Origin: an uncultured Gemmatimonadales bacterium
GTDB lineage: Bacteria > Gemmatimonadota > Glassbacteria > GWA2-58-10
Reading direction: 5' to 3'
Assembly (NCBI GenBank): GCA_964473155.1
Contig: CAYYNT010000009.1
Span: forward strand, 17,121-81,120
DNA length: 64,000 nt
Of this stretch, positions 12,105-60,644 are shown piece after piece. Made by a program: the position numbers and the translations under genes. Each line of letters opens with the position of its first letter. The stretch's first letter is position 1. A model generated the notes under the pieces. The model was not told the origin of the DNA, ran no database searches, and worked only from the letters and a program-made list of their open reading frames with translations.

Positions 12105-12363
12105 TCCATTTGGATCGATATGTCAGCCTTTGAATAATAACGGCGCAGATATGAAAATATGACCCTGGCTGCCATATTTCAACAAATGCGGCGGAGGTGA
12201 ATCAGAAGGACAATATCCAACTTTATCACATTGCGGCGCGAAATGTTGCCATTCAAACCACCACTGTTTCCGGATTGGATCATACAATATGCTTCATGTC
12301 CGGCGCAGCAGACCAGACGGATCCTCGATGGAAAGAAAAACGAACCCCGTCCTAACAGTTCTT

Positions 12364-12729: not shown

Positions 12730-12770
12730 CTCTCCCTCCTCTCCTCAACATTGCCTTCTGCGGACATCCC

Positions 12771-15590
<2,820 letters not shown>

Positions 15591-34300: not shown

Positions 34301-34312
34301 GAGGCGGCTGAC

Positions 34313-34957: not shown

Positions 34958-35014
34958 GATAGTGAAAACGCTACGGCCGGTCACACACCGGACAGAATAC
35001 TGGAAAGCTGAACC

Positions 35015-38010: not shown

Positions 38011-38019
38011 GGACGACAG

Positions 38020-38778
38020 ATGTTCAAGGTGCTGTTCGAAAGATTAAGCCAGGGACACCGGCGTTTCCCGTTCCTGAAAAAAACTCCGGTGCTGCCGGAG
38101 CGTTTCCGGGGCCTTCCGGCGCTTAATGCCGCTAAGGGTGAAGAATGCGGCGAAGCCCTCACCCAAGCCTGTCCGTACGGCGCCATTTCCGGCAAAGGGG
38201 AAACTCTTGCGATCGATCTGGGACGCTGCCTGTTCTGCGCGGATTGCAAGGCGGCCTGTCCCGGAGGAGCGGTTGAATTCAGCAACGATTACCGTCTGGC
38301 CGTGCGCCGGCGGGCAGACCTTGTGCTGCGCGATAATTGCCTTCATCTGGCCGAGGCGCTGGACAAAAAAGCCCGGAGCCTGTTCGGCCGCTCTCTGACA
38401 TTGAGACAGGTGAGCGCCGGAGGCTGCAACGCCTGCGAGGCGGATGTCAACGTGCTCAACACCCTGACTTACGATCTGGCCAGTTACGGCATACAGTTCG
38501 CCGCCTCACCCCGTCATGCGGATGGCCTCCTGGTGACTGGGCCGGTCACGGCCAATATGCGGCTGGCCCTGGAAAAAACCTGGCAGGCCGTGCCGGACCC
38601 GAAGATCGTGATCGCGGCCGGAGCCTGCGCCATCTCCGGCGGACCATACCGCGATCACCCGGAAACAGCGAACGGAGTCGATTCCGTATTGCCGGTCGAT
38701 CTTTACATCCCCGGCTGCCCGCCCCACCCCTGGACAATCCTGGACGGCCTTCTGCGCCTGCTGGGGCGGATACGCTGA
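38020..38778 (+). CDS. NuoB-like small subunit with N-terminal ferredoxin-like 4Fe-4S extension (EhrS-like)
   Basis: The N-terminus has CLFCADCKAACP (CxxCxxCxxxCP) plus a degenerate second motif. The C-terminal part has NuoB motifs: GGCNAC, FAASPRHADGLLVTGPVT, IAAGACAISGGPY and IPGCPP. That gives four Cys for a proximal cluster, but CxxC replaces the usual CC pair. Confidence 0.7.
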   Translation: MFKVLFERLSQGHRRFPFLKKTPVLPERFRGLPALNAAKGEECGEALTQACPYGAISGKGETLAIDLGRCLFCADCKAACPGGAVEFSNDYRLAVRRRADLVLRDNCLHLAEALDKKARSLFGRSLTLRQVSAGGCNACEADVNVLNTLTYDLASYGIQFAASPRHADGLLVTGPVTANMRLALEKTWQAVPDPKIVIAAGACAISGGPYRDHPETANGVDSVLPVDLYIPGCPPHPWTILDGLLRLLGRIR

Positions 38779-45400: not shown

Positions 45401-45690
45401 CCACCAATTAGAATTCGGCAGGCCACGGTCATTGCGCTCGATATAATTCCAGCCCAGGGACCGAAGTACAAAGCACAAAGGCTGACCATGACCGAACGGC
45501 CGTCAAATATCAGACCGGGGCCCATATTAAGCGGCCGAAGCATTCCTAACACCGCGCTCCCGCCGAATAAAAGACCCTGCAGTATGACTCCAGACAATGT
45601 GTTCCGCGGCCAGCGCTTTACGATGAAATTTGAAACTATGCTGAGAGCCACCAGCAATGCCAGGTTGAGCACCAAATCGAGATAAACCAT
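42463..45690 (-). CDS. Hybrid sensor kinase: N-terminal 5TMR-LYT membrane domain, multiple PAS domains, HisKA/HATPase_c and C-terminal receiver
   Basis: Five TM helices at the N-terminus, of the LytS-YhcK type. At least four PAS-like segments follow (repeated ...ITERK..E.E...). H-box VAHDFNNML, then N, G1 and G2 boxes. The terminal REC has VIMPEMNG. Confidence 0.8.
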
Positions 45691-46141
45691 CCGTCACTTT
45701 TCCTGACTTTGATTGGTTTATTAGCTCTATTTTGAGATATCTTATATTTTTTTGATCAAATCCACCTTTTAAATAATATTGCACTGACAGATACATAGTA
45801 AAGAAATTCCATGCAATTGACTATTCCCCGCGTTAGAACCGCGAGGCATCACGTCAATTCGCCGCCACTTAGTGACACAGAAATCTCCAAAACCTAAAAA
45901 CATATTCAGCTCGATAGCATGGGCAGGCAGGCGGCCAGCGCATGTCACCCATTGGATTTAGCTCCGCTGCTTGCGCTTGACAAGCATTTAGCGCTTTACA
46001 GCCGGAAACCTCCGGATTGGTTGCTCCCCGGCCGGGTTGCTTTAGTCCAGAACGACTGCACCGGGCCGCGGTATTGACCACACATACCGCGGCTAACGCG
46101 TATATCCTGAACCATCCGGCGGAACGCCGGTTCTGGTGACG

Positions 46142-48397
46142 TCAACTGCCTTGAATCTCAAGCAGTTTTTCCTCTATTCTACGGCGCCACTGGTCCATTT
46201 TTCCGTTGTCCTGGGCCGAATACCAGAAATCCGTCACCGTGCTGCTTCCGCGCAGCCCCATTGAATCGTGGATTTCCGCATACAGTTTCGAGAGGAAATC
46301 CCCGATGTCCACCCCCCTGGCCGTTGCCTCACGCTTGAGAGTCTCAAGCAGACGGCGCTCGTCCCAGGCCTCCGAGAGCCCCATCATATAAGGCGTGGGA
46401 ATTATATCGAAAGGTGTGTTCCAGACACAGATCCAGTTTTCGCCCTCGAGCGTGTCGAAACGGTTGCCCCAGTTGTAAGCCCAGACCAGGGAGCCCACGC
46501 TTCCGTTGGCAGCGAAATAATAACCGAACGTATAACGCGCCCGGCCTGGCAGGCCGGCATCTCCCGTGCCGCTGTATTCCCAGAACTCCACCCCGGCGTC
46601 CCTGACCTGGCCGGGCAGGACGGGGTTCTCGTGCGTCGCGTTAGTGCAGAAAACATCCAGATAAGGCAGAAAATCAATACCGCCTTTGTAATGGTGTATG
46701 TCACCGCTGATAATAAAGTCGCTGTTGCCTTCTTTGAGCAGGTTTCTCATATCTATGAAATGCGACTTTATAAATGTCAGCGTATCGGTATATGCGCGCA
46801 TCTGCTCCCAGCGCCTGGCGCTCTGGATCCACTTGGCTGGCTCATCGAACGGAGTGACATTGAGCTTTGGCCAGTTGTTCGCCAAAGCATGCTCGCGGAC
46901 CCGTCCCGCCCACTCCACCACCAGGGGCCTCAGCCTGCTGTTCACCGAATCAGGCTTCTCCCAGAGCAGCGCGTCCGCACCCTTCTGATCCAGCCCTAAC
47001 GCGGCCATGGCCAGGGTCTGTTCGAGCTTCATCGTGCGGGGGAAACCGTACGGATTTTCGCCGAGGAACCAGAATATGTAATTGATGTCATTGCCGCGGC
47101 AGGCCTTCATGAACAGATCGAACCCGCGCCAGTCGAACTCGAAACCGCCGTCCCCGGTCCCTTTCAGTTCAGGCCTCGCGCTGAAATACCAGGGGATGAC
47201 GCAGTTGTGATTGTAGCGGCCGAGGCGCTCGATCTCATGGTAAGGAAGCAGCCCGCGGGTGCAATTTCCGAGAGTAAGCCCCGCCTCGTTCATGGTCAGA
47301 AGCTTTATCGGCAGGATTTCCAGTTTCAGGGGCACTGTCACCGGATCCGCATTCGCCGCGCTTATCACGATCCGGGTGACGTACTCCCCGGCCCTGGCGC
47401 CCTCTGCACCGGCTGTGTTTATCTCGAGCCACACGGCATGGCTTCTGGATTGCGGCACATCGAACTTATAAGACGGCCAAAGCCGCTGTGGAAATGGTTT
47501 CACCGGCAGAATACTGTCGTTCGTCCGCACCAGAGCGTATTCCACCACCCGGACACCGCACAGAGCGACAACGCTCCCGTCCGCGGCCTTTATTTCGCCG
47601 ACAGTCACCGCTACCCCGCTCAAATCCTTTCCGTTCGCATATACACCTATCTGTGCCAGTTCAATCTCGTTAAGGCTCTGACGGACCCGGAGAGTGTCGG
47701 GGATCTCCCCCTGCTGAGGCGCGGCGATATTCACCAGGGGGTCCATCCAGCTCCGGGCGAACGGAACTATCGCGCTCCGCGACCACGCCTCCGGAATGAC
47801 AGGTTTCTGAGCGTACTCATAATACTTTTCCGGAACGGATTCACGGCGCTGGACCCTTTCCACCCAGGCGCGGGTCTCCGCATTGTACCTCTCCTCATCC
47901 CCCGGCTCGCTCTCGACCAGTCTGGCCGAACGCACGCTCAGTTCACCTTCGCGGCTCAGAAGGCGGAACCTGGCGGTCGAATCCGGTTCGCAGAGCGCCA
48001 GGAATCCACTCTCGCATGGTATCCTGACCGTTTTCCACTGATTGTCGTTCAGCCCGCCGAAACGGTGCAGTTCGCTGTAGCGCACGCTCACATCCAACTG
48101 GCTGAATACCTGGGCGATTATCGGCCGGGTGACATTGTCGAGGTATTCAACTTCCAGGTTGAAATGATAGCGCCCGGAGGGCCTGTAGCCCTCCCACCAC
48201 GCGGCAGCTTCAAGGGTAATCGATTTTCCCTTGTACATCTCGGCATACTCATCGCCTTCCGAACCATCTCCCGAAACGGAAGAAAGCTCGACCGGAAATA
48301 TTTTTCCATCGGCATTCCGGGAAGTCTTACCGCCACAGGAGGCATTCAGCAGAACGAGAAAAATCATAACACTTAGTGCGATAAACCTGCTGTTCAT
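46142..48397 (-). CDS. Large secreted lipoprotein of unknown function (possible glycoside-hydrolase-like TIM-barrel protein)
   Basis: Lipoprotein signal MNSRFIALSVMIFLVLLNASCGG (the ATG has a GGAGGG RBS). The 750-aa mature protein has no motif I can assign. Its aromatic/acidic-rich C-terminal half is reminiscent of carbohydrate-active enzymes. Confidence 0.5.
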   Translation of the reverse strand: MNSRFIALSVMIFLVLLNASCGGKTSRNADGKIFPVELSSVSGDGSEGDEYAEMYKGKSITLEAAAWWEGYRPSGRYHFNLEVEYLDNVTRPIIAQVFSQLDVSVRYSELHRFGGLNDNQWKTVRIPCESGFLALCEPDSTARFRLLSREGELSVRSARLVESEPGDEERYNAETRAWVERVQRRESVPEKYYEYAQKPVIPEAWSRSAIVPFARSWMDPLVNIAAPQQGEIPDTLRVRQSLNEIELAQIGVYANGKDLSGVAVTVGEIKAADGSVVALCGVRVVEYALVRTNDSILPVKPFPQRLWPSYKFDVPQSRSHAVWLEINTAGAEGARAGEYVTRIVISAANADPVTVPLKLEILPIKLLTMNEAGLTLGNCTRGLLPYHEIERLGRYNHNCVIPWYFSARPELKGTGDGGFEFDWRGFDLFMKACRGNDINYIFWFLGENPYGFPRTMKLEQTLAMAALGLDQKGADALLWEKPDSVNSRLRPLVVEWAGRVREHALANNWPKLNVTPFDEPAKWIQSARRWEQMRAYTDTLTFIKSHFIDMRNLLKEGNSDFIISGDIHHYKGGIDFLPYLDVFCTNATHENPVLPGQVRDAGVEFWEYSGTGDAGLPGRARYTFGYYFAANGSVGSLVWAYNWGNRFDTLEGENWICVWNTPFDIIPTPYMMGLSEAWDERRLLETLKREATARGVDIGDFLSKLYAEIHDSMGLRGSSTVTDFWYSAQDNGKMDQWRRRIEEKLLEIQGS

Positions 48398-48486
48398 ACA
48401 ACCCTCCAGGAAATATTCCGGTTCAAACGAGTTTCCCTCCGGCACGGAAGCAGGCGGGATAATATTTATCTGCCAGTCGGTTCAGT

Positions 48487-50406
48487 TCAGCGGCGCGGCC
48501 CCCAGACAGGAGTCTCGGCTCCGCGCTCCAGGGCGCCCAGGTCCGGAGCGCTTCCGGTGAAATCATCGTTCACGTTGGGCAGGACCACCCCGCGATCCAC
48601 CGCCGGGGCGCCCGCTCGCAACGAGAAATCATAATCCCGGCTGAAATACACGGCCATCGGCTTTTCCGGATCGGGCCGGGACACGTTCTCAAAGATGTCA
48701 TAATCCACTTCCATTCCATGGCTTTCCTGACCTGTGGCGGCGCGGAACTCCGCCAGCGTTGCAAAACGCTTGAACTCCTCCCGCCGCTCCAGCTCGTAGT
48801 CACGCAGAACTCCCGCGGCAGGAGCCTTCCAGAAAAACTGCGCCCCGCCCGCGCGGTTCGGCCTGTAACCGTTGTAATCCAGCGTGCTGTAGATGGTATT
48901 CGTGCAGAGACGGAACAACTCGCGGCCGGGCGCGTCCGTGCCAAGGAAAAGGTTGTTGCGGAAATGAGCGTTGCTGTAGCCCGCCGGGTTGCGGTTCTCG
49001 GCCACAATCGTATTGTGATACAGCAACAGGCCCGCGGGCTGGACCTTGAACTTGAAAGCCATGCCCCAGGGAACATTATAAAGGATATTGCGGATATAGT
49101 AGGCCGGGCCGCCGTAAACCGGCTGGGCGCTCAGGCCGCACTGGGCCGAGTTGAAGCAGCGGTTGCGCAGCACGCGTATATTGTGCACTCCGCCGTCCGC
49201 CTCGATAAAATCATCGGTCATCAGGTGGATGTCGTTGTTGTAGAAATCGATGGCCGTGTCGCGCAGCGACGGGTCAGGGTCCGGGCTGCCGTGGGTGCAG
49301 ACACAGATCGCGTCATGGAACCAGGCGATATGGTTGTGGCAGACCACGTGCCCCTGGCCATAGACTTTGACCGCGTAATAGCTCTTGAGCGGGCTTGCCC
49401 CGTAGGAGCCTGGATCGTACCAGCCGATCAGGCGGTTGCGGTCGTCCCGGCCGAGCATGACATTGTCCGAGATCAGGAAATCGCGCGATCCGGCAAACTG
49501 GGTCGTGACCGCTATCCCCACCTCCTCCATCCGGCAGTGCCGGACGGTCAGGCCGCTGCACCCGGCCACGTCCTTGAGGCCCGCGTAGAAAGCGATATCG
49601 CAGTTCACTATTGTCAGGTTTTCGAAGATATGGTAGTCCGCGGCCATGACATCGAACAGGCGGTAGCAGCCCGCGCCGTCGAAAATGACCTCACCGTCGC
49701 CCGCCGCGCGTATCACTATAGGCCGCTCGGGCGTGCCCTTGGCTGTCAGGACATACGCGCCGTGGAAATCCAGGCCCAGCGGATCGCTGTAGCTTAAGCG
49801 ATCGGCCCTGTAGCGCCCGGCATGCATCAGGATGACGTCGCCGGGGCGCACCTTGCGCTCGCTCACCACGGCCCAATCTCCGCCGCCGGCGCCCTGGTAG
49901 GCGGACATGAGTCCGGTGAACGACGGCTCCGTGCGCGGGCCTTCCCAGTCCGGGGGATAGACATGCAGCACTCGACCGCCCGCCGCGGCTTTCGGCTCAG
50001 CGCGGGTCCGGAGGCGCACGGTCTTTTCCGCCTCCCCTCGCACGCCGTCCGGGTCGGTCAGGCGCAGACGGCACTCATACTCTGCGCCCGGCTCCAGGTC
50101 GAACAGACTGCCCGCGAACATATCCGGGGCCGTGTAGTCGATAAAATCCTCTTCGGCGAACGTGCGCTCGTTGTCTATCCGCAACAGGGGCAATCCCTCG
50201 CGCCAGCCGTTCTCGCCAGCTTTGCGGTAATGAAGCGAAACCGCGCTGTTGCGGTTGTCATCCCCGGCGATAGCCCACTCGAAACCCAGGCAGATCAGTG
50301 TCGGACGCTCCAGCTTCAGCTCACCCGCGGTCACGCGGTCCTCAGCCGGAAGGATAACGCTTGATAGAAGAATGAGTATTGAAACGAGGGCCGGCGCTGA
50401 ATTCAT
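48487..50406 (-). CDS. Secreted right-handed parallel beta-helix repeat protein (pectate-lyase-fold; putative polysaccharide lyase/hydrolase)
   Basis: Signal peptide, then many short repeats with N/D/G/I/V periodicity (e.g. NLTIVNCDIAFYAG..., HNHIAWFHDAI..., YNNDIHLMTDDFIEADGG) typical of pectin-lyase-fold beta-helices. Confidence 0.6.
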   Translation of the reverse strand: MNSAPALVSILILLSSVILPAEDRVTAGELKLERPTLICLGFEWAIAGDDNRNSAVSLHYRKAGENGWREGLPLLRIDNERTFAEEDFIDYTAPDMFAGSLFDLEPGAEYECRLRLTDPDGVRGEAEKTVRLRTRAEPKAAAGGRVLHVYPPDWEGPRTEPSFTGLMSAYQGAGGGDWAVVSERKVRPGDVILMHAGRYRADRLSYSDPLGLDFHGAYVLTAKGTPERPIVIRAAGDGEVIFDGAGCYRLFDVMAADYHIFENLTIVNCDIAFYAGLKDVAGCSGLTVRHCRMEEVGIAVTTQFAGSRDFLISDNVMLGRDDRNRLIGWYDPGSYGASPLKSYYAVKVYGQGHVVCHNHIAWFHDAICVCTHGSPDPDPSLRDTAIDFYNNDIHLMTDDFIEADGGVHNIRVLRNRCFNSAQCGLSAQPVYGGPAYYIRNILYNVPWGMAFKFKVQPAGLLLYHNTIVAENRNPAGYSNAHFRNNLFLGTDAPGRELFRLCTNTIYSTLDYNGYRPNRAGGAQFFWKAPAAGVLRDYELERREEFKRFATLAEFRAATGQESHGMEVDYDIFENVSRPDPEKPMAVYFSRDYDFSLRAGAPAVDRGVVLPNVNDDFTGSAPDLGALERGAETPVWGPRR

Positions 50407-50763
50407 GTGAACCTCCCGGGGTTCTTGCCGTCAGTGCATATAAAAACCAGGTGGGATTACTCTCCGGATGCCTGCTGGAAATCTGCCCGAAACAGAAAGA
50501 CCGGGTGTTCTGACCGGTGAAAAATTTAATCGCCGAGATACATTAGGACAGAACCTGCCAAAGCGGTAATGCGGTTGCAATGTCCATATCGTAAACGTTG
50601 ATTCGGGGAAATCTCAGAGACAACCTGAACATCCGGTGATACGACAGGACACGGCAGCCAGCCGAGGCTGGCGAGCTGCGACCGCTGTGTAAAAAACTGT
50701 AAGACAGATATTGAGAAGAGCACGGATTAAGGCAACCAGAACGCTTCAACAGCGAGGTAAATC

Positions 50764-50791
50764 AGTCGCTCAACAATGAGCGACTTTTTTC
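50764..50791 (+). terminator. Orphan plus-strand rho-independent terminator/attenuator in the leader of the envelope-module operon
   Basis: agtcgctc / gagcgact is a perfect 8-bp stem with a 6-nt loop, followed by tttttt. No plus-strand coding gene lies upstream (the nearest upstream gene is on the minus strand, ending ~360 nt away). Confidence 0.5.
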
Positions 50792-51025
50792 TACCGGGGA
50801 ATTTATGCTGTCACCTTGCTTTCGCAATCAAAAACAATATTCGAGCCGTTCTATCAATCCCCTGCAACAGGCGTCGAAGGTAAAAGTGAAAAGGTGAAGA
50901 ATAGAGCCGGAGGTGTCAAATCAGTTGCTTTTCCCGGCACATGTCTCTTAATTTCAAATGATGCCTGTATAATATGTGTTCTGATAACTGTCTGTATATG
51001 TTCTCCAATTCAGCCTGTGCGGCTT

Positions 51026-52057
51026 ATGCATAGAATAACGAGGATACTGCCGGCATTAGCCCTGGCCGGTCTCTGGGCCATGCCCTGCCTGGCCTGCGAT
51101 GTACCGGTGTTCCGTTATGCCCTGGAACGCTGGACCCCGGCGGTGTACGAGCTGAACGTTATCGCTCCTCAGGGCAATCCCGCGAACGATACTCCACCCG
51201 TCAACTCCCTGCAAAGCCTTCTGGACAGCGCAAACTGCGCTTTACATTACAGCGGCTCCGGCGCGTCCGTCAGCGGGGGCGTCATCCCGCGGATGGAACT
51301 CGCATATCGCGACTGGCAGGGGGAAAAAATCTTAATATGGTCCGGCCGGGCGTCGGCTGAAAATGTCGAAAAGCTTGTCGATTCTCCAGCCCGCAGGGAG
51401 ATAGCCGGGAAACTACTGGGCGGCGCGACAGCGGTCTGGGTGTTTCTCGAGTGCGAGGACAGGGCGAAAAACGAGGCCGCGCTGGGACGGCTGGAAACGG
51501 CCCTGGACCAGATCGAGCGGAGCCTGACTCTGCCGGAATCGGTGACACGCCTGCAAGAGTCCATGACAGGCAAGCTGCGGGTTGACTTCCCTGTCGTGAA
51601 AATCCAGGGTTCGAGCGAGGCGGAAAAAATCCTGGTCGACATGCTGATCCGCTCCGAGCCGGACCTGGAGTCCTACAGGACTGAGCCGATGGCATTTCCG
51701 GTATTCGGACGGGGGCGTGTGCTTTACGCTCTGGCGGGAGATGGCATCGACAGCGTGAATACCGCCGGGGCGTGCGTTTTCCTGGCCGGTCCATGCGCCT
51801 GCGAGATAAAAGAATCGAACCCGGGAATGGACCTGCTCATGCGGGCCGGATGGGCCTCGGGTATCGGGGAGAGCTGGGTCGACGCCTCGGAAAACGTGTC
51901 GTTGTCCAGCCTCGCCGCCCTGGCGGGAGGCAGGCCGGATGACAACTCCGGCGGGAAACTGTTTCATGGTGTCGTAATAACGCTGCTGACCGTGCTTATA
52001 CTCGTTGGAGCCGGGAGCGTAGTGCTCCTGAGAAAGATCAGGAGAAGGGACCGATGA
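51026..52057 (+). CDS. Exported protein of unknown function with signal peptide and C-terminal transmembrane anchor
   Basis: MHRITRILPALALAGLWAMPCLAC signal. A soluble ~280-aa region with several Cys follows. The C-terminus has a TM helix VVITLLTVLILVGAGSVVLL followed by RKIRRRDR. The stop overlaps the next start (ATGA). The track ORF begins further upstream at a TTG; I chose the first ATG before the signal peptide. Confidence 0.5.
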   Translation: MHRITRILPALALAGLWAMPCLACDVPVFRYALERWTPAVYELNVIAPQGNPANDTPPVNSLQSLLDSANCALHYSGSGASVSGGVIPRMELAYRDWQGEKILIWSGRASAENVEKLVDSPARREIAGKLLGGATAVWVFLECEDRAKNEAALGRLETALDQIERSLTLPESVTRLQESMTGKLRVDFPVVKIQGSSEAEKILVDMLIRSEPDLESYRTEPMAFPVFGRGRVLYALAGDGIDSVNTAGACVFLAGPCACEIKESNPGMDLLMRAGWASGIGESWVDASENVSLSSLAALAGGRPDDNSGGKLFHGVVITLLTVLILVGAGSVVLLRKIRRRDR

Positions 52058-53334
52058 ACCTGAGGCAGGTTGTGTTCCGGGAGATAATGCACCGCAAGAC
52101 GGGCTTTATCCTGGGGGCCTTATCCGTGGCAGCGGCGACCGGCGTTCTGGTCTGTGTCATGACCCTGCTCGAGGCCCATGCCGAGGCGTCCAGCCGGATG
52201 ATGGCGGAAAAGGAAGCCGCTACAGCCAGGGAAATGGCATTGATGCAGGACGACTACCGCAAGATAATGAAGACCCTGGGGTTCAACCTCCTTATACTCC
52301 CCGAAAGCCAGAGCCTGGAGCAGTACTACGCCACCGGGTATGTCACGGAAACGATGCCCGAGGACTACGCCGGGCGTCTTGCCGCGGCCGGGCTGCTGAC
52401 GGTGCGCCATGTCCTGCCCAGCGTGGAGCGCAGGATCGAGTGGCCCGAGATGGGCGGGTCCACGGTCATTCTCTCAGGAACAAAGGGTGAGATACTGTCA
52501 GCGGAAGGTTTCAACGGTGAGTCGATGCAGATGCCGGTGGCAGAGGGGGATCTTGTAGCCGGGTATATCGTGGCGAAAAATCTCGGTCTGAGTGTGGGTG
52601 AGACTGTGACGCTACGCGGCGAGAAGTTCCGGGTCAGTGAGATAAACACCGAGAAGGGAACGCGGGACGACATTACAGTCTGGATCGAACTGGGACGGGC
52701 GCAGAGGATGCTTGGCCTCGAGGGACGGATCAACGCCATCCTGGCCCTGAAATGCCTCTGCGAGGGCAACGAGTTGCCGAAGGTCCGCAAGGACGTGATC
52801 CGGATACTGCCGGGGACCCAGGTTATCGAGGTCGACTCCAAGGTCATCACCCGCGCCGAGGCCAGGGACAAGGCCGCGGCAGTGGCAAAACAGACGCTGG
52901 AGGAAGAGAGCGCCAGCCTGGCCCGTTTGCGTAAAAGTATCGAGGACCTTGCCGCCTGGCTCGTCCCTCTGTCGATTCTCGGCGCCGCAGTCTGGATAGG
53001 CCTTCTGGCCCTGGGCAATGTGCGGCAGAGACGGGCCGAGATCGGGATATTCCAGGCCCTCGGTCTTGATTCGGGGCGCATAATCGCTATTTTCCTGGCC
53101 CGGGCCGCTCTTATAGGCCTGACGGGCGCGGTGGCGGGCTACGCCCTGGGCATGGCCACGGCTGGAGTATACTCGGCAAAGTTCGAGGGTGGCCTTTCCG
53201 GTGCGCTGACTTTCAACGCCCTGACGTTTCTCGTTGTCATCCTTGCCGCCCCGGCGCTGGCCATAGTATCAAGCTGGCTGCCCGCGCTCGTTGCGGCGGG
53301 ACAGGACCCGGCTCTCGTACTTAGGGAGGATTGA
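52054..53334 (+). CDS. ABC transporter permease, FtsX/MacB/LolC-E type (N-terminal TM, large periplasmic domain, three C-terminal TM helices)
   Basis: The topology and the conserved C-terminal FtsX-domain pattern (...RRAEIGIFQALGLDSGRIIAIFLARAALIGLTGAVAGYALG...) fit the family. An AGGAGA RBS is present. Confidence 0.75.
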   Translation: MNLRQVVFREIMHRKTGFILGALSVAAATGVLVCVMTLLEAHAEASSRMMAEKEAATAREMALMQDDYRKIMKTLGFNLLILPESQSLEQYYATGYVTETMPEDYAGRLAAAGLLTVRHVLPSVERRIEWPEMGGSTVILSGTKGEILSAEGFNGESMQMPVAEGDLVAGYIVAKNLGLSVGETVTLRGEKFRVSEINTEKGTRDDITVWIELGRAQRMLGLEGRINAILALKCLCEGNELPKVRKDVIRILPGTQVIEVDSKVITRAEARDKAAAVAKQTLEEESASLARLRKSIEDLAAWLVPLSILGAAVWIGLLALGNVRQRRAEIGIFQALGLDSGRIIAIFLARAALIGLTGAVAGYALGMATAGVYSAKFEGGLSGALTFNALTFLVVILAAPALAIVSSWLPALVAAGQDPALVLRED

Positions 53335-53341
53335 GGCGCGG

Positions 53342-54007
53342 ATGTTGAACCTTGATTCGATAACGAGAGTCTACCGCCGTAAGAACGGGAATCCGGTCGT
53401 GGCGCTCGACAGCGTCTCGCTTTCGGTCCGGCCCGGCGAGTTCGTGGTCCTCCAGGGCCCCAGCGGAAGCGGCAAGACCACCCTGCTCCTGACAGCCGGG
53501 GGCCTTCTGCCCCCGGCCTCCGGCGCGGTAAAGCTGGAGGAGCGCGACATCTATACCCTGCCCGCGGGCGAACTCGCCAGGGTGCGGGCGAAAAAAATCG
53601 GGTTCGTTTTCCAGCAGTTCCATCTGATACCCTACCTGAATGTCCTCGAAAACGTGCTTGCGCCCTCGCTGGCCTGTCCGGACCCTGGTGCGCGGGAGCG
53701 CGCCTTTTCGCTCCTCGAAGAGCTGGGTCTCGACCGGAGGGCCGGCCACTTCCCCTCCGAGCTGAGCACCGGGGAGCGTCAGCGGACAGCCCTTGCAAGG
53801 GCGCTGCTCAACCAGCCGCCGCTCATACTGGCGGATGAACCCACCGGCAACCTGGACCGCGACAATTCACGCATAGTAACCGGTCACCTCTGCCGGTTCG
53901 TGTCCTCGGGCGGCGCGGTGCTGATGGTGACGCACGGGCCGGACAGCCTCTCCTTCGCTCACCGGCGGGTCGACATCATGGAGGGCAAGATTGTCTCCGC
54001 GGATTGA
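53342..54007 (+). CDS. ABC transporter ATP-binding protein (LolD/MacB-type)
   Basis: Walker A GPSGSGKTTL, signature LSTGERQRTALARAL, Walker B ILADEPTGNLD. A GGGAGGA RBS precedes the ATG at 53342. Confidence 0.8.
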   Translation: MLNLDSITRVYRRKNGNPVVALDSVSLSVRPGEFVVLQGPSGSGKTTLLLTAGGLLPPASGAVKLEERDIYTLPAGELARVRAKKIGFVFQQFHLIPYLNVLENVLAPSLACPDPGARERAFSLLEELGLDRRAGHFPSELSTGERQRTALARALLNQPPLILADEPTGNLDRDNSRIVTGHLCRFVSSGGAVLMVTHGPDSLSFAHRRVDIMEGKIVSAD

Positions 54008-54020
54008 AAATACCTTACTC

Positions 54021-57000
54021 ATGACGGCAGAAAAAATCGTGTCGAGACTCGCGCCGTTTATCGTCATGCTGAGCCTCGGACCGGCAAGCTCTCTTTTTCC
54101 ATCAGACTGGCCCATGTGGCGCTTCGGGCCTGAACGCGGGGCCTGCGCTCCGGACAGCCTGGCGACTGAACTGTCGCCCCTGTGGGCGGTGGATTACGGC
54201 AGGCGGGAGCCGGTCTGGGACGATCCGCTGAACCGTGACCTGATGCCCTACGACCGGGTGTTCGAGCCGGTGGTGGCCGATGGTAGGATGTTTGTCGGGT
54301 TCAACGATCGGGACAAGCTGGTGGCCCTCGACACGGATTCAGGCAAAGAACTCTGGTCGTTCTACGCCGAGGGACCGGTGCGGTTTCCGGCGGCCGCCTG
54401 GGGCGGCAACGTGTATTTCGTGTCGGATGACGGGTGCCTCTACTGCGTGCGCGCCGCAGACGGAGCGCTGGTCTGGAGGTTCCGCGGGGGGCCATCGCAG
54501 CGCAGGGTGCTCGGGAACAGACGCCTGATCTCCACCTGGCCGGCCCGCGGCGGACCGGTGATCCGTGATGGGCGGGTATATTTCACCGCCGGCATCTGGC
54601 CGTTCATGGGAGTCTTCATATACGCACTGGATGCCCGGAGCGGAAAGGTTGCCTGGGAGAACGACTGGACCGGCAGCCAGTTCATACTCCAGCCGCACAA
54701 CTCCCCCGCTTTCGCCGGGATTGCGCCTCAGGGCGCCCTGGTCGCGGCGGGCGACGGTATAATAGCGCCCGGTGGACGTTCTGTCCCGGCCCTGTTCGCG
54801 CGTGAAGACGGCAGCCAGCGATACTTCCATCTCGCCGCACAGAACAAGACCGGAGGCTCTTTTGCCTGCGCCGCCAGCCACGTCTTTTTCAACCATTACC
54901 GCGACCAGGTCTGCTCGATGTACGACCTCGCGACCGGTAAGGCCCTTATCGAGCGGATAGGCAGTTCCCCGGTGATATCCGGGGACCTTATCCTGTTCGG
55001 TGGAAAGACTGTCCGGGCTTTCGATTCTCGTGAGCTGCAGGAAGTCAGCCGCTGGTTCCTGACTGGAAATTTCCTGGAGCGCTGGCTCGCAGGCCTCGAT
55101 GCGGACAAAATCAAACCCGCATTCCTCGGTTCGGCCGTGAAATGGTGGGTCCGCAGGAAATCCCGTCTGTGGCGCGGCGCAGTTCTCTGGGAAGCAAAGG
55201 TAGATGCCGGCCGGGACCTCATACGCGCCGGTGATATCCTCTATGCCGCATCCGGTGACGGCATCACGGCGCTGAGGCTGTCATCCGCACGCAAATCTCC
55301 GCCCGCCGTGCTCTGGCATAAGAGGGTCGAGGGCGGCGTCGAAAGGTTACTTGCCGCCGGAGGGAAGCTGTTCGCGGTCACCCTGGACGGGCGGATCATG
55401 GCTTTCGGCCCGGAGAGTGACGGGGATAAAGCCCCTCCCGCGCGTCCCGTGGAAGCGGCCGAAACCGGACCCGGATCGCGCGAGTCCGCCGGGATCATCA
55501 GCCGCACCGGGGCGCGAGAGGGCTACGGTCTGGTGTTCGGACTAAAGGACTATGATTTGCTGCTTGGCCTGGCCCGCGGTTCCAACCTGCAAATTGTCGG
55601 CATTGACCCGGACAGCGCACGGGTGGACTCGATCCGGCGGAGACTGGACCATGAAGGCCTGTACGGGAAGCGGATTGCGGTGGTACGGGGGACCCAGGGC
55701 GGTTTCGACTGCCCGCCATACCTGGCCAGCCTGATCGTTATTAACGGCCCGCTCGAACCGGGTTTCAGCCGGCTCCTCGAATCTCTTCGCCCATACGGAG
55801 GAAAAGCCTGGCTGAGAAACCCGGGGACAGGCCGCCGCGTAATTCAGGATTCTGTCAACGCCGCGGGCGTCGAGGCGCTGCGCCTTGAAAAAGGAACGGC
55901 GCCGGTTGTTGTCGTCCGGAACGGCCCGCTGCCTGGAGCCGGGAGCTGGACCCATCAGTATGGCGATATCGCCAACACGGTCAAATCGAACGACACGCGC
56001 GTGAAGCTGCCGCTTGGCCTGCTCTGGTTCGGCGGAAGCTCCAACCTGGATGTCCTTCCCCGCCACGCGCACGGTCCGCCGGAGCAGGTTGCCGGGGGCC
56101 GGCTTTTTATCGAGGGCATTGACTGCATGAGCGCGCGGGATGTCTACACCGGGCGCGTGCTCTGGAAAACCAGGATCGAGGGCCTGGACAACTTCAATGT
56201 CTATTACGACGAGACTTACAAGGACGCCCCGACCAGCACGGAATACAACCAGATTCATATCCCGGGGGCGAATGTCCGGGGCGCTAATTTCGTGGCCACC
56301 ACGGACCGCCTCTATATTGCCGCCGGACCGGTCTGCCGGGTGCTCGACACGACGACTGGAGAGGTGACCGGGACTATCGGACTGCCGGAAGGTTCGGGCG
56401 GCTGGGGCTACATCGGGGTCTGTGGCGATTACCTTATCGCCGGGGGCGGCCTGGTCGATTTCTCGTCCCGGATGCCGGGAGGCTCTGAAAAGCCAAGCGA
56501 GAGAGACAAGCCTTTCCTTGATTTCAACCGCTCGGCCAGTTCCAGCCTGACAGTCATGAACCGCCATACCGGACGGCCGCTGTGGACCCGCGAGGCGCGT
56601 TACGGCTTCATCCACAATTCGATCGTGGTGCACGACGGGAGACTTTACTGCCTGGACAAGCTGCCGCCTTACATCGAGGGCCTGATCGCCCGTCGCGGCG
56701 GCAGGCCGGTGGAGGGTTCGGGCATGCTCTGCCTGGACCTGACATCCGGGAACATGATCTGGAACAAACAGGAGGGAGTTTTCGGCGCCTGGTTGAGCTA
56801 TTCCGCGGAACACGATATCCTTCTGCAGGCCACCCGTCCCTCCAGCGACATGGTGCGGGGCGAGGACGGCAGGCGCATGGCCGCGTATGGCGGCAGGGAC
56901 GGCCGGCTGCTGTGGGACAGGAAGATCGAATACGGGTCTGTGCCGATTCTCCGTCGTGACAGAATTATCACAGCCGGAAAGATGATCGACCTTCTGAGCG

Positions 57001-57860
57001 GTGAGGAACTGGTCCGGAAACACCCGCTGACCGGCGAGGAGGTACCGTTTTCCTGGAAGCGCAATTATGGCTGCAACTACCCGATCGCCTGCGAAAACCT
57101 TCTGACCTTCCGTTCCGCCGCGGCCGGTTATTTCGACCTGACCAACCTGGGCGGGACAGGCAACCTGGGAGGATTCAAATCCGGCTGCACCTCGAACCTG
57201 GTGGCGGCGGACGGGGTGCTGAACGCCCCGGACTACACCCGGACCTGCGCGTGCAGCTACCAGAACCAGACCTCCCTGGCCCTGCTCTACGACAGGGATG
57301 TCGAGGTCTGGACATTCAACGACCTGGATTCGGTCTCTGCGCCGGTCCGCAGGGTGGGAATCAACCTGGGCGCTCCGGGGGACCGGGTTTCCGATGAGGG
57401 AACCCTCTGGCTGGACTACCCCAGCCGGGGCGGACCCTCTCCGGACATACCGGTGTCGGTCGAGGGAGACAGTCTGCGCTGGTTCTGCCACCATTCGTCG
57501 CGCATACGGGAGGGAGAAATGCGCTGGGTGGCGGCCTCCGGCGTGGAGGGCGCCAGAAAGCTGACTCTGAATCTGGGGCACGGGGATGCCGCCCCCCGGA
57601 CTTTCAAGGTGCGCCTGTATTTTTCGGATTGTGACGCTCACTCAGGCAGCCATGTATTCAGCCTCGGCATCCAGGGGAAAAGAGTTGTTGAAAGGCTCGA
57701 TCTCGTTGCTGAATGCCGCCGGGGAGAGACATATCTGATCAGGGAATTCGACGGTGTAGAGGTGCGGGACACCCTTACCGTTGAGCTGATCCCGGAGCCG
57801 GATATAAAAAACAACCGGACCGTGATCTGCGGGATAGAAGCGATCGAGCAGGGCTGGTGA
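54021..57860 (+). CDS. 1,279-aa secreted multidomain protein: BamB/PQQ-like beta-propeller repeats flanking a degenerate class-I methyltransferase-fold domain, with a C-terminal malectin-like carbohydrate-binding domain
   Basis: Signal-like N-terminus MTAEKIVSRLAPFIVMLSLGPASS. Repeated ..DG.VY....DG.L.A.DA.TG...W.. propeller blades occur at the N-terminus and again after residue ~700. The central GYGLVFGLKDYDLLLGLARGSNLQIVGIDPD..RVDSIRRRL...RIAVVRG...SLIVINGP matches the MTase beta1-alpha-beta2 order but lacks the GxGxG loop. The C-terminal FKVRLYFSDCD...HVFSLGIQGKRVVERLDLV...TYLIREFDGVEV.DTLTVELI matches a malectin-like domain. Confidence 0.6.
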   Translation: MTAEKIVSRLAPFIVMLSLGPASSLFPSDWPMWRFGPERGACAPDSLATELSPLWAVDYGRREPVWDDPLNRDLMPYDRVFEPVVADGRMFVGFNDRDKLVALDTDSGKELWSFYAEGPVRFPAAAWGGNVYFVSDDGCLYCVRAADGALVWRFRGGPSQRRVLGNRRLISTWPARGGPVIRDGRVYFTAGIWPFMGVFIYALDARSGKVAWENDWTGSQFILQPHNSPAFAGIAPQGALVAAGDGIIAPGGRSVPALFAREDGSQRYFHLAAQNKTGGSFACAASHVFFNHYRDQVCSMYDLATGKALIERIGSSPVISGDLILFGGKTVRAFDSRELQEVSRWFLTGNFLERWLAGLDADKIKPAFLGSAVKWWVRRKSRLWRGAVLWEAKVDAGRDLIRAGDILYAASGDGITALRLSSARKSPPAVLWHKRVEGGVERLLAAGGKLFAVTLDGRIMAFGPESDGDKAPPARPVEAAETGPGSRESAGIISRTGAREGYGLVFGLKDYDLLLGLARGSNLQIVGIDPDSARVDSIRRRLDHEGLYGKRIAVVRGTQGGFDCPPYLASLIVINGPLEPGFSRLLESLRPYGGKAWLRNPGTGRRVIQDSVNAAGVEALRLEKGTAPVVVVRNGPLPGAGSWTHQYGDIANTVKSNDTRVKLPLGLLWFGGSSNLDVLPRHAHGPPEQVAGGRLFIEGIDCMSARDVYTGRVLWKTRIEGLDNFNVYYDETYKDAPTSTEYNQIHIPGANVRGANFVATTDRLYIAAGPVCRVLDTTTGEVTGTIGLPEGSGGWGYIGVCGDYLIAGGGLVDFSSRMPGGSEKPSERDKPFLDFNRSASSSLTVMNRHTGRPLWTREARYGFIHNSIVVHDGRLYCLDKLPPYIEGLIARRGGRPVEGSGMLCLDLTSGNMIWNKQEGVFGAWLSYSAEHDILLQATRPSSDMVRGEDGRRMAAYGGRDGRLLWDRKIEYGSVPILRRDRIITAGKMIDLLSGEELVRKHPLTGEEVPFSWKRNYGCNYPIACENLLTFRSAAAGYFDLTNLGGTGNLGGFKSGCTSNLVAADGVLNAPDYTRTCACSYQNQTSLALLYDRDVEVWTFNDLDSVSAPVRRVGINLGAPGDRVSDEGTLWLDYPSRGGPSPDIPVSVEGDSLRWFCHHSSRIREGEMRWVAASGVEGARKLTLNLGHGDAAPRTFKVRLYFSDCDAHSGSHVFSLGIQGKRVVERLDLVAECRRGETYLIREFDGVEVRDTLTVELIPEPDIKNNRTVICGIEAIEQGW

Positions 57861-57867
57861 CAGTATT

Positions 57868-57900
57868 TCGCGCCATGTGCATGGCGCGGCCTGCATCCTT
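57868..57900 (+). terminator. Hairpin between the giant propeller gene and the methyltransferase-barrel gene (possible attenuator/terminator)
   Basis: cgcgccatg tg catggcgcg is a 9-bp inverted repeat, followed by gcctgcatcctttt, ~10 nt past the stop. Confidence 0.3.
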
Positions 57901-57926
57901 TTAATCTGACAAGAGGATTATTTTTG

Positions 57927-60644
57927 ATGCCTGAGTTTTTCTACGAGAAGTATCGAACGGCGATTAAGGGAGTTCTGAGAACCGGCATGTCACAATCTCT
58001 GATTTGTTTTGTATTTTTTCAATTCTCGCTCTGCCTCTCTTTCTCCGTCCAGCCACTTGCCGCGCAGAAAACCAACGATCCGGAACAGGAGGCCAGGGAT
58101 TTTATCAACGTGGCCGAAACCCGGCTTGCACCGGTCTACCCGGCGCTGGCCCTGCATATAGTCGAAAGGTTCGGCCTGGCGGGTGAGAAAGGTCTCGGGA
58201 TCGACCTGGGAAGCGGTCCGGGGCACCTGATTATCGAACTGGCGCGGCGCACGGAGAGGATGGAGTGGATAAACGCGGACATCAATCCCCATTACTTCAC
58301 ATATTTCCTGACAAAGGCCCGGCAGGCCGGGCTGGCCGGGCGGGTGCAAGCCGTGGAAGCCGATGCGCAGGCCCTTCCCTTTGATGACGATGTGGCCGAT
58401 ATCGTTGTCTCCCGCGGTTCGTTTCAGTTCTGGGAAGATAAGGAAAAAGCCTTCTCCGAAATCTATCGTGTCCTCAAACCCGGCGGAAAAGCGTTTATCG
58501 GGCGCGGCCTGCCGGAGAATCTGCCTCCGGAGACTGCAAGCAAGGTGCGTGAACGGGCAGGCAACGGTCCGGAATACGACGTGGCGGAAACTGCAATCCT
58601 GCTGGAAAAAATTATGCGCTCCCTGAAAATAGCCGATTACCGGGTGGAAAGACCCCGGCCGGCGGGCTCCGAGGGTGTAAGCTACGGCGTGTGGATCGAG
58701 TTTTCCAAACCTGCCGCGAAAACACAGGCAAGCGAGAAAAGAACCTCCTACTACGACCTGGATACGCTGGTGGTCATCGGCTCCGTCCTCCGCGACCCGG
58801 TATCCGAGCCGCGAACTGAGCCGTTGAGCCTCGAACCCGCCGCCACCGTGGTCAACCAGGCGGAAATCGCCCGTTCCGGGGCCAAGACCCTGATCGAGGC
58901 CATGGAGTACGTTCCCGGCGCCTGGATCGAGAACCGGGGACGGAAAGTGAAACAGTTCTTTTCGATCCGCGGCCAGAAATATCCCTACCCGGACTATGCC
59001 ATTGACGGCGCCTGGCAGCGTGAGTTTCTGGAGCTGCCTTATTTCTTTCCCGCTGAAAATGTCGAGCGCATCGAAATCATGCGCTCGAGCGCGGCGCTCT
59101 TTACCGGGCTTTCAGGCTTGACCGGCGTGATCAATATCGTCCCGCGCGAATACCGCCAACGGGAAACCGCTTTCCAGGGTGAATACGGGTCTTTCGGAAC
59201 CTACAGGCTCAATCTCAGCCACGGCGGCGTGGTGAAAAACCTGTCCTACGCCCTGGACCTGGGGTTCCCTGGCACGGATGGGCCGAAAGGCAAGTACGCG
59301 GCCGAGTCGTTCACCAATTTCAGAGGCAGCCTCTACTGGCGTCCGAATGAAAAATGGGAAGTCAACGCCCATCTGATGCATCTCAACGGCAGCCGTCAGA
59401 TGGCCCGGGCCGTGGCGCCCGCGACTTTGGACCTGCGCACCGCCTCCGAGAAATTCGATCCTTTCCGAGCCACCCTGGCCACGGTGAAAGCCCTTTACAA
59501 ACCCAACGCGAGAGTTTCCTCGGAGCTAATCGCCAGCTATTCAGTCCGTAACAACATGTATATATCGCAAACCCCGTCCTCGACCACCTCCAACCGTGAG
59601 TACGATTATGAGTGGGGGGCCAACTTCACCCAGTCGGTGACGCCTTTTCGAAGCAATATCCTTCGTTTCGGGAGCCTCTACAACCATTGGGCGGCCCCCA
59701 ACGGAAAGCGTTTCTACGTGGGCAAGCGCTGTGACCTGGAAACCTTCTCCTGGGTGGCCGGGGACGAGCAGAGCATCGGGCCGCTGACCCTGAATCTCGG
59801 TCTGCGCTGGGCTCGCACTTATATCAACAACTACGGCGCATTCAATATCAACGAAAGCCCCAAGGGCCTGCAGAACGTGACCCCGATCAGAAACGAGTGG
59901 GAACCGGCTCAGATAACCACCGCCCTGGGAGCCTCATGGGCATTCTCACCCTCGGTCTCGGCTCATTTCAACCTGGCCGCGGGCAAGATAAAGCCCGCTC
60001 CGGGCAACTTGAACACCGATATGCAGGAACCAGAAAAAGAGAAAAGGCTGAAGATCGACCTCGGTCTCATAACCAGGCGGGAAAACATAGGGCAGCTTTC
60101 ACTGGTCTGGTTTATCACCCGTCAGAACGATGCCCTGGTGCTGAGCGGCAAGACTGTAAACCTCGATGGCAAAGTGCTGGAGACCTTTCTGAACCGCGAC
60201 CAGCGCCAGACCGGTGTCGAGATCGACGCCCGGAGCGTCCCTCTGCGGGGCTGCCTCCAGCTTTTCGCCAATTTCGTGGCCATCAGCCCACGGGCAGAGG
60301 TGGAGGGGCGGATGGTCCGTGACCGGGAAACTCCCAGGATCATTTCATCCGGCGGACTTTTCATCAACAGGGCCGGGTATGACCTGAACCTGTTTCTCAA
60401 AACCGTTTCTTCTTACGAGAGCACCCGTTTCGTGGCAGGCACTGCCGGTCAGCCGCTTCTGCCGCAGCCCCTTGGCGCGTACCAGACGCTTAACCTGACT
60501 CTCGGGCGCAATTTCGGCTCCAGGCCGTTCAACAGGATTTACCTGGAAGTGACCAATATGGCCGATGACAGGTATTCCACGGTGGCGGGCTATCCGGATT
60601 ACGGCAGGAGGCTGACAGCAGGCTGGCGCATCGTTTATAAATGA
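57927..60644 (+). CDS. Fusion protein: N-terminal class-I SAM-dependent methyltransferase domain (UbiE/Methyltransf_11-like) joined to a TonB-dependent-receptor-like plug plus beta-barrel
   Basis: The ATG at 57927 has an AAGAGGA RBS. A hydrophobic segment LICFVFFQFSLCLSFSVQPLAAQ follows. Canonical MTase motifs are present: I GIDLGSGPGHL, post-I INADIN, II FDDDVADIVVSRGSFQFW, III LKPGGKAFI. Next comes a TonB-box/plug-like region (DTLVVIGS ... VPGAWIENRG..V.QFFSIRGQ ... ERIEIMRSSAALFTGLSGLTGVINIV) and a ~550-aa barrel-like region. The last residues are ...RIVYK, not the usual terminal F/W. A single uninterrupted ORF. Confidence 0.65.
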   Translation: MPEFFYEKYRTAIKGVLRTGMSQSLICFVFFQFSLCLSFSVQPLAAQKTNDPEQEARDFINVAETRLAPVYPALALHIVERFGLAGEKGLGIDLGSGPGHLIIELARRTERMEWINADINPHYFTYFLTKARQAGLAGRVQAVEADAQALPFDDDVADIVVSRGSFQFWEDKEKAFSEIYRVLKPGGKAFIGRGLPENLPPETASKVRERAGNGPEYDVAETAILLEKIMRSLKIADYRVERPRPAGSEGVSYGVWIEFSKPAAKTQASEKRTSYYDLDTLVVIGSVLRDPVSEPRTEPLSLEPAATVVNQAEIARSGAKTLIEAMEYVPGAWIENRGRKVKQFFSIRGQKYPYPDYAIDGAWQREFLELPYFFPAENVERIEIMRSSAALFTGLSGLTGVINIVPREYRQRETAFQGEYGSFGTYRLNLSHGGVVKNLSYALDLGFPGTDGPKGKYAAESFTNFRGSLYWRPNEKWEVNAHLMHLNGSRQMARAVAPATLDLRTASEKFDPFRATLATVKALYKPNARVSSELIASYSVRNNMYISQTPSSTTSNREYDYEWGANFTQSVTPFRSNILRFGSLYNHWAAPNGKRFYVGKRCDLETFSWVAGDEQSIGPLTLNLGLRWARTYINNYGAFNINESPKGLQNVTPIRNEWEPAQITTALGASWAFSPSVSAHFNLAAGKIKPAPGNLNTDMQEPEKEKRLKIDLGLITRRENIGQLSLVWFITRQNDALVLSGKTVNLDGKVLETFLNRDQRQTGVEIDARSVPLRGCLQLFANFVAISPRAEVEGRMVRDRETPRIISSGGLFINRAGYDLNLFLKTVSSYESTRFVAGTAGQPLLPQPLGAYQTLNLTLGRNFGSRPFNRIYLEVTNMADDRYSTVAGYPDYGRRLTAGWRIVYK

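Follow-up and report, generated by a model that had tools for sequence, protein, structure and literature searches.

Five consecutive genes on the forward strand of contig CAYYNT010000009.1, from an uncultured Gemmatimonadales bacterium of the Glassbacteria lineage, form one conserved and so far undescribed module of the cell envelope. The genes, termed here g1 to g5, lie in a stretch of 64,000 nucleotides (nt) that was analysed as a whole (the window; all positions are counted from its first letter unless another locus is named). They encode a thioredoxin-like cysteine protein (g1), an ATP-binding cassette (ABC) pair of the MacB type (permease g2 and ATPase g3), a giant beta-propeller protein (g4) and a TonB-dependent receptor fused to a methyltransferase of the S-adenosylmethionine (SAM) type (g5). 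The parts come from known superfamilies (type VII ABC systems, TonB-dependent receptors, class I methyltransferases, PQQ-type propellers and the thioredoxin fold); nothing described in the libraries or the literature that we searched corresponds to their combination, to the g1 family or to the exported methyltransferase. On the basis of this composition and of failed membership tests, not of a demonstrated mechanism, we place the module outside the kinds of system known so far.

Conservation and composition of the module

An earlier note on this DNA, drawn from the letters and the open reading frames (ORFs) alone, had described five tightly packed genes on one strand, and the ORFs bear out this arrangement (Table 1): the ATGA overlap between g1 and g2 (52054-52057) is exact, as is the 7-nt gap between g2 and g3 (53335-53341). 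The 13-nt gap given for g3 and g4 (54007/54021) applies only if g4 starts at the ATG at 54021. Judging from the sequence, the likely start is the TTG at 53991, which has GGAGGG 7 nt upstream, coincides with the start of a public protein 100% identical to g4 (P0121, 1289 amino acids, aa) and turns the gap into an overlap of 17 nt. The gap between g4 and g5 is 63-66 nt wide, the larger value applying to the ATG at 57927, which is the most likely start because the resulting 905 aa equal the length of the relatives P0001 and P0002. A longer g1 beginning at the TTG at 50816 was ruled out, as relatives have 339-348 aa and a 99% identical one (P0247) has 343 aa. Promoter-like and terminator-like sites inside the gene block occur at the rate expected by chance, which fits a single operon.

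Table 1. Features of the module and of the DNA directly upstream of it
Feature	Position in the window	Strand	Basis and remarks
Structured non-coding stretch	50560-50800	+	Ends in a terminator-like hairpin (50764-50785) plus T-run
Conserved upstream DNA blocks	50911-50932, 50945-50955	+	Pairwise alignment with L001; candidate promoter/operator
g1	51026-52057	+	ORF, 343 aa; exported, tail-anchored
g1 signal peptide, first mature residue, transmembrane helix	aa 1-23; Cys24 (51095-51097); aa 316-334		
g1 GPCxC motif	51788-51811	+	Invariant CxC (C257, C259)
g2	52054-53334	+	ORF; MacB/FtsX-type permease
g2 periplasmic CxC	52747-52767	+	Kept in at least 90% of 38 module-linked homologues
g3	53342-54007	+	ORF; ABC ATPase of LolD/FtsE/MacB type
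g4	53991 (TTG) or 54021 (ATG) to 57860	+	ORF, 1279-1289 aa
g4 N-terminal BamB/PQQ_2-type beta-propeller	54105-55460	+	PQQ_2, PDB BamB and PQQ-repeat matches; motifs DWPMWR, QPHNSPAF
g4 degenerate methyltransferase-fold domain	55473-55940 (aa 485-640)	+	Profile-profile comparison and Foldseek
g4 second propeller region	55941-57305	+	Most conserved motifs of g4: WTHQYGD, LPRHxHGPPEQ, NQxHIPGAN
g4 four-cysteine cluster	57066-57269	+	YGCNY, KSGCT, TRTCxC
g4 C-terminal malectin-like domain	57318-57857	+	Foldseek; weak Pfam match
g5	57927-60644	+	ORF, 905 aa; alternative start 57924; methyltransferase-TonB-dependent receptor fusion
g5 exported class I SAM methyltransferase domain	58068-58736	+	Methyltransf_11; motif I GIDLGSGPG at 58197-58223
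g5 TonB-box-like motif DLDTLVVIGS	58755-58784	+	Between methyltransferase domain and plug; read from sequence
g5 plug	58839-59129 (residues 306-402)	+	Pfam Plug PF07715, E 1.5e-13, 51.6 bits vs cutoff 23.9
g5 putative beta-barrel region	59130-60641	+	Homologues match PF00593

The nearest named relatives belong to Candidatus Glassbacteria, and the set recurs in other genomes and across phyla. All of the g5-type receptor loci examined on long contigs (8/8) also carry g1, g2, g3 and g4, in permuted orders; Glassbacteria, Latescibacterota, Bryobacteraceae and Bacteroidota are among the lineages represented. The order seen here is kept in L001 and L007 (Bryobacteraceae), the receptor comes first in L005 and L009 (Glassbacteria), a glycosidase gene on the opposite strand separates the receptor from the rest in L003, g4 is split in two in L006 (Latescibacterota), and the receptors of L092 and L093 lack a methyltransferase domain. 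In L080 (Bacteroidota) the genes run g1-g2-g3-g4-receptor and a CarboxypepD_reg N-terminus replaces the methyltransferase of the receptor.

The scan of GTDB species genomes with g1 returned at least 587 loci, distributed over Planctomycetota, Verrucomicrobiota, Lentisphaerota, Kiritimatiellae, Hydrogenedentota, Sumerlaeota, Latescibacterota, Glassbacteria, Omnitrophota, Poribacteria and Gemmatimonadota. Composition was counted in 39 well-flanked g1 loci, 33 of which have the ABC pair and/or g4: both the pair and g4 are found in 10, g4 only in 10, the pair only in 7, and the pair (with or without g4) plus a methyltransferase and/or a receptor in 6, the last 6 loci having none of these partners. 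The receptor occurs in only 3 and a methyltransferase in 4. This composition defines a core of g1 with g2/g3 and/or g4, to which receptor and methyltransferase are lineage-specific additions. The co-localised module proposed by the earlier note stands; within it, the receptor and the methyltransferase fusion are accessory and not core.

The core families are very large. At 50% identity the relatives of g1 form 2885 clusters, and g4 has more than 2474 homologues, with a mean column identity of 57% across phyla; databases name g4 only generically (as a PQQ-binding beta-propeller repeat protein or BamB). The core is carried by phyla that are dominant in soil, in sediment and on marine particles (Planctomycetota, Verrucomicrobiota, Latescibacterota, KSB1, Acidobacteriota, Hydrogenedentota and others), and as its carriers include cultured organisms (Gimesia, Rhodopirellula, Prosthecobacter), the question of its function is directly testable.

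The Planctomycetota add neighbours of their own, in arrays that resemble operons. A duplicated SBP_bac_11 protein scoring above the ModA equivalog cutoff follows g1-g2-g3 within tens of nt, and genes for a ModA-type binding protein, a ModB-like permease and an ATPase come after g1-g2-g3 in L055, L073, L076 and L044. The stand-alone methyltransferase gene of L087 is flanked on one side by an ECF sigma/anti-sigma pair, whose anti-sigma factor contains PQQ_2, and on the other by three ModA-like genes; an equivalent series of homologous genes is seen in L063, where the locus ends after a single ModA-like gene.

Two side observations concern these loci. The ModA-like importer stands directly downstream of g1-g2-g3 at 13313-16845 of L055 (with the ATPase) and at 13162-16818 of L087, as it does in L044, L073 and L076, and its architecture is unusual in that the binding protein is duplicated (531 aa, two domains) or triplicated. 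In five loci of Rhodopirellula/Rubripirellula type (L056, L057, L066, L067 and L072, about 11050-14300) the pair g4-g1 is followed by a protein of ~1050 aa, in which a cytochrome c motif and a cupredoxin-like C-terminus were recognized by eye; these genomes are closely related, so the recurrence is weak evidence.

The five proteins and their relation to known systems

The set of envelope domains suggested by the earlier note was recovered, with FtsX, MacB_PCD, ABC_tran, PQQ_2, Methyltransf_11 and Plug found by Pfam, and the pseudo-methyltransferase and malectin-like domains by profile and fold comparison. Its statement that no listed system fits also holds, as the defining features of MacAB-TolC, Lol, SusCD, BamB and PQQ enzymes were looked for and not found. 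Signal peptides and transmembrane helices were assessed by simple hydropathy.

The g1 protein was predicted to be exported and tail-anchored, and both its signal peptide and its C-terminal transmembrane helix are supported. Its fold is thioredoxin-like and chaperone-like, resembling Sco1. The fold is shared with thioredoxin and Sco1-type proteins; unlike these, g1 has no conserved CxxC and no sequence-family match. No match was obtained in Pfam, NCBIfam or PDB sequences, even with 65 members or the profile as query. The invariant residues of the aligned family include three cysteines, C24, C257 and C259, the sole invariant ones; C257 and C259 lie near the C-terminal end of the soluble part and form no CxxC active site. 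A site of the signal peptidase I type directly precedes C24 in all aligned sequences (65/65), with mostly Ala at position -1 and an often charged or bulky residue at position -2. A lipoprotein was ruled out, there being no lipobox before Cys24 in these sequences. Cleavage at this site would leave a mature g1 that begins with a free cysteine.

The permease g2 matches the Pfam families FtsX (E 7e-15) and MacB_PCD (E 4e-06), both above the cutoffs, and has four transmembrane helices; g3, which matches ABC_tran (E 5e-31) and reads Walker A GPSGSGKT, signature LSTGERQR and Walker B ILADEP, is its ATPase. The pair shares with MacB-type (type VII) ABC systems the four-helix FtsX permease, the MacB-like periplasmic core domain and the matching ATPase. 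None of the specific assignments tried was retained: g3 reaches 182 bits against a cutoff of 307.75 for LolD, g2 reaches 37 bits against 362 for LolC/LolE (lolCE), and the NCBIfam scores for MacB are far below the cutoffs. In contrast to MacAB-TolC, LolCDE and FtsEX-EnvC, the module comprises no adaptor, TolC or LolA-type partner (no match to an HlyD-family adaptor or a TolC-type/OEP protein was found in the five proteins or the window neighbours), g2 carries a periplasmic CxC, and the partners of the ABC pair are instead a thioredoxin-like cysteine protein and a giant propeller protein. That g2/g3 have a periplasmic partner of their own is plausible.

The g4 protein is extremely conserved and has invariant histidine as well as four invariant cysteines (C1018, C1056, C1076 and C1078). 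In the transmembrane and signal scan no 19-residue window reaches the hydropathy threshold; an N-terminal hydrophobic stretch read from the translation, LAPFIVMLSL, fits a signal peptide. Pfam PQQ_2 is matched in four stretches, and the best Foldseek match of the second propeller is tetrathionate hydrolase, followed by BamB. BamB, PQQ dehydrogenases and tetrathionate hydrolase have the same type of repeat and are the best PDB and Foldseek matches, but g4 exceeds them three- to fourfold in length and contains additional domains. Its identification as BamB was rejected (42.4 bits against 285.2 in NCBIfam, 1279 aa against roughly 390, no lipobox), as was that of a PQQ-dependent dehydrogenase, PQQ_enz_alc_DH giving 30.5 bits against 480 and the matches being to generic propeller repeats only.

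The middle domain of g4 is homologous to the methyltransferase domain of g5, with which it aligns by hhalign from motif I to post-motif IV (probability 87.6%, E 3.5e-6). It has no Pfam match in this copy; Foldseek pairs it with PDB 3dlc (E 7e-8, from the partial AlphaFold2 (AF2) model). This model covers residues 480-1279 and was used for domain folds only, its pLDDT being 65.5 and that of the most conserved segments <50. As the glycine loop is lost here (GLKDY) and variable across the g4 family, pseudo-methyltransferase is a fair name for the domain. The C-terminus matches the malectin-like ectodomains of ANX/FER in Foldseek (E about 4e-8); the Pfam Malectin score (17.6 bits, E 0.004) stays below the cutoff of 23, which homologues pass. 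Some homologues also have a CBM9-like domain (PF06452).

In g5 a supported signal peptide is followed by a domain that matches Methyltransf_11/25 at residues 94-192 (Methyltransf_11 E 4e-20, 72.7 bits against a cutoff of 21.2) and shares 42% identity with PDB 3dlc (145 aa, E 2e-30) in an alignment that takes in both the SAM motifs and the APxYP helix at the N-terminus. The family keeps GIDLGSGPG, NADIN, ADA and VSRGSFQFW (68 sequences). It has no conserved cysteine, and the idea of an arsenite methyltransferase was dropped. The structure 3dlc was crystallised with SAM and resembles the small-molecule C-methyltransferases CouO/Coq5, with a large cavity (PMC5289526). Unlike MMP1179 (the protein of 3dlc) and the CouO/Coq5/UbiE-like enzymes, the g5 domain and its relatives carry signal peptides or lipoboxes. 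A different fold, which the earlier note had named as an argument against the module, was tested for and not found, and exported proteins of the module do contain two methyltransferase-fold domains (g4 and g5), as the earlier note had it.

The remainder of g5 is a receptor. It shares with FecA-type transducers and SusC receptors a signal peptide, an N-terminal extension, a TonB-box-like motif (we take DLDTLVVIGS to match the TonB-box consensus), a plug and a putative barrel. The plug motif PGAWxExRGRKVKQFFSxRGQKYPYPxY (about 58920-59080) is nearly invariant in 68 receptors that are 45-93% identical; this conservation seems unusually strong for a receptor plug and could point to a dedicated site for a ligand or partner. 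The barrel model PF00593 gives no match at E<0.01 in this copy and matches many homologues that are 45-63% identical, and NCBIfam TonB-receptor models match g5 only in part. A SusD_RagB match, which a SusCD system would call for, was not found in the module or its neighbours. While the extension of the FecA type is an STN domain, g5 has a class I SAM methyltransferase instead, which homologues may exchange for CarboxypepD_reg. The fusion is genuine: an assembly frameshift or artefact was ruled out, since the homologues P0001 (93% identical) and P0002 (85% identical) also have 905 aa and a methyltransferase and Plug occur together in 73 of the 120 best g5 matches. The N-terminal extension of a TonB-dependent receptor lies in the periplasm. 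By this established topology the methyltransferase domain of g5 would be a periplasmic extension of the receptor, and a SAM-competent domain is unexpected there.

The methyltransferase module is found on three exported carriers: it forms the N-terminus of the receptor, stands alone as a protein of its own or is contained in a g4 paralogue. At least 1001 stand-alone methyltransferases of ~250 aa were found, those among the 120 listed being 54-66% identical; a signal-like N-terminus (89/97) or a lipobox (30/97) places them outside the cytoplasm. In L092 and L093 the receptor has no methyltransferase domain and the module resides within a second g4-like protein, with strong Pfam methyltransferase matches; in L092 this paralogue has an intact loop, DLGCGDG, at the position of the g4 pseudo-domain. 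In three loci of Phycisphaerae type (L089, L090 and L091; gene 10001-10744) a stand-alone exported methyltransferase is 56-62% identical to the g5 domain, and a rhomboid protease (Rhomboid_N plus Rhomboid) is adjacent or one gene away in each of them (3/3). The literature searched contained no report of an exported methyltransferase and no paper on the module or on the methyltransferase-receptor fusion.

What the module might do

Three partners (g1, g2 and g4) carry conserved cysteine motifs in their exported parts, and together with the N-terminal cysteine of g1 and the exported SAM-type methyltransferase these motifs suggest an undescribed periplasmic chemistry. We tentatively favour, at somewhat below an even chance, a thiol-based periplasmic station that captures and processes material taken up from outside. 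The receptor would admit a substrate; the tethered methyltransferase domain of g5 would dock on the homologous degenerate domain of g4, which would hold or transform the substrate; a thiol or metal-thiolate relay that passes on the bound species might be built from the cysteine motifs of g1, g2 and g4; and the ABC pair would supply ATP-driven mechanical work from the inner membrane, as in other MacB-type systems. Uptake is preferred to export because g5 has a plug and a TonB-box-like motif and because ModA-type importers adjoin g1-g2-g3 in Planctomycetota. Receptors (in classical diderms) and binding-protein importers (in Planctomycetota) are both devices of uptake, which favours acquisition with periplasmic processing. 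A molybdate or tungstate substrate was considered and dropped, the ModA-type genes being confined to Planctomycetota, and these genes were kept as a hint of direction. A role in nutrient or metal acquisition would aid the interpretation of thousands of metagenome-assembled genomes.

Several points weigh against this capture-and-processing role. The known roles of MacB-type ABC systems are export, extraction and mechanotransduction; import is not among them. SAM is not known from the periplasm, and catalysis there would need a supply of it that is so far undescribed. Only Planctomycetota contribute to the 12 of 80 loci with ModA-type genes near g1, and this window has none. The stand-alone methyltransferases of Phycisphaerae adjoin rhomboid proteases, away from the module. 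Finally, the AF2 model of the C-terminal 800 aa of g4 is poor exactly in the most conserved segments.

A more specific proposal, which we regard as doubtful, is that the SAM-dependent methylation itself takes place outside the cytoplasm. The exported methyltransferase, whether tethered to the outer-membrane receptor, anchored by a lipid or built into the propeller protein, would act on an imported small molecule or on a metal(loid)-thiolate that g1, g2 and g4 hold through their cysteine relay. If true, this would imply a so-far undescribed SAM supply to the periplasm and an envelope chemistry of a new kind, which PVC, the FCB-group, Acidobacteriota and related phyla would widely share.

The earlier note had read the gene order, from inner membrane through periplasm to outer membrane, as a dedicated pathway of export or surface assembly. 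The pump would then extract a periplasmic or membrane cargo (possibly g4 or a polymer), and the TonB-type barrel would be the exit. Beyond the gene order, this is consistent with the carbohydrate-binding-type domains of g4 (malectin-like, and CBM9-like in some homologues). MacB-family pumps act outward, as in MacAB-TolC and LolCDE, and Oar of Myxococcus, a TonB-dependent transporter, is reportedly needed for protein secretion. However, membrane-fusion adaptor, TolC-like protein and conserved cargo gene are all missing, most core loci have no receptor, g5 keeps its plug and TonB-box-like motif, and binding-protein importers accompany the core in Planctomycetota. With nothing that shows export and with plug, motif and ModA-type context pointing to uptake, the direction given in the note was not upheld, and we consider export unlikely.

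It is likewise improbable that g1 and the ABC pair are machinery that matures g4 as an enzyme, inserting metal, sulfur or a disulfide as NosDFYL does for NosZ. The Nos system consists of a periplasmic propeller enzyme, an ABC system and a chaperone, and shares with the module the logic of a periplasmic beta-propeller with invariant histidine and cysteine, an ABC system and a small cysteine-bearing, membrane-attached protein. The extreme conservation of g4 with its invariant His and Cys, the chaperone-like, Sco1-resembling fold of g1 with its three invariant cysteines, and the g4-g1 pairs without an ABC pair (10/39 loci) would all agree with maturation. On the other hand, g1 and the ABC pair lack a nearby g4 in 7 of the 39 loci, no sequence relationship to any Nos protein was found (the ABC system is of the ABC-2 type there and of the FtsX type here), no metal site is demonstrated, and the methyltransferase and the receptor are left unexplained.

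A third alternative, to which we give still less credence, is signalling or gating, in which the methyltransferase-fold domain would be non-catalytic, acting like a FecA signalling domain or a handle to report or control transport through g4, g1 and the ABC pair. The domain does stand N-terminal to the TonB box, where signalling extensions are located, it is exchangeable with CarboxypepD_reg in homologues, and a PQQ_2 anti-sigma factor adjoins a methyltransferase in L087 (and L063 has a homologue of it in the equivalent place); yet its strictly conserved SAM-binding motifs argue for ligand binding, and this window has no sigma/anti-sigma pair. Chance neighbourhood or a mis-assembled fusion is scarcely credible given the recurrence of the same set across phyla in several orders, the equal length of the fusion in its 93%- and 85%-identical relatives and its 73 occurrences among 120 matches.

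Upstream DNA and neighbouring genes

A terminator-containing leader had also been attributed to the module. The hairpin is present, and the 241 nt that end at it fold more stably than shuffled sequences (z = -3.19); however, terminator-like sites are found in the region at the chance rate (10 against 9.3 expected), and the pairwise alignment with the closest relative, L001 (85% identical; proteins 77-90%), reveals no conservation of the stretch. It has no Rfam match at the gathering score (at E<=1 only a chance match to a CRISPR repeat appears), and no tRNA was found in it. The stretch may represent a small RNA or else a leader peculiar to this lineage; its membership of the module is not shown, and the attribution was not retained. 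The upstream DNA in common with L001 is limited to short blocks, some within 50911-50955 and others immediately ahead of the start codon, and the former represent a candidate promoter or operator of the module.

The other neighbours, among them a hybrid kinase, a sugar ABC system and a weak GH123-like match, have no conserved link to the module. Two genes oriented divergently from it (46142-48445 and 48487-50406, both on the minus strand) encode proteins of 767 and 639 aa, whose sole family match is a weak one to GH123_N; L001 has genes for 751 and 639 aa in the same position, which suggests conserved synteny with the module in close relatives. Farther upstream, the GC content of 44001-46000 drops to 0.48 (about 0.59 elsewhere) over the N-terminal part of a gene for a hybrid histidine kinase of 1075 aa (42463-45690, minus strand).

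The window contains a second, conventional TonB-dependent receptor with Plug and barrel matches in Pfam (16253-18283, minus strand), which is unrelated to the module; genes for a Gfo/Idh/MocA oxidoreductase (18675-20030) and a hybrid histidine kinase (12771-15590) lie near it. A cluster of Mrp/complex-I-like membrane subunits occupies 30693-38778 on the plus strand, with two matches to Proton_antipo_M and a 49-kDa/30-kDa fusion. A strongly negative AT skew marks the interval 32-36 kb (-0.296 and -0.243 in its two 2-kb windows).

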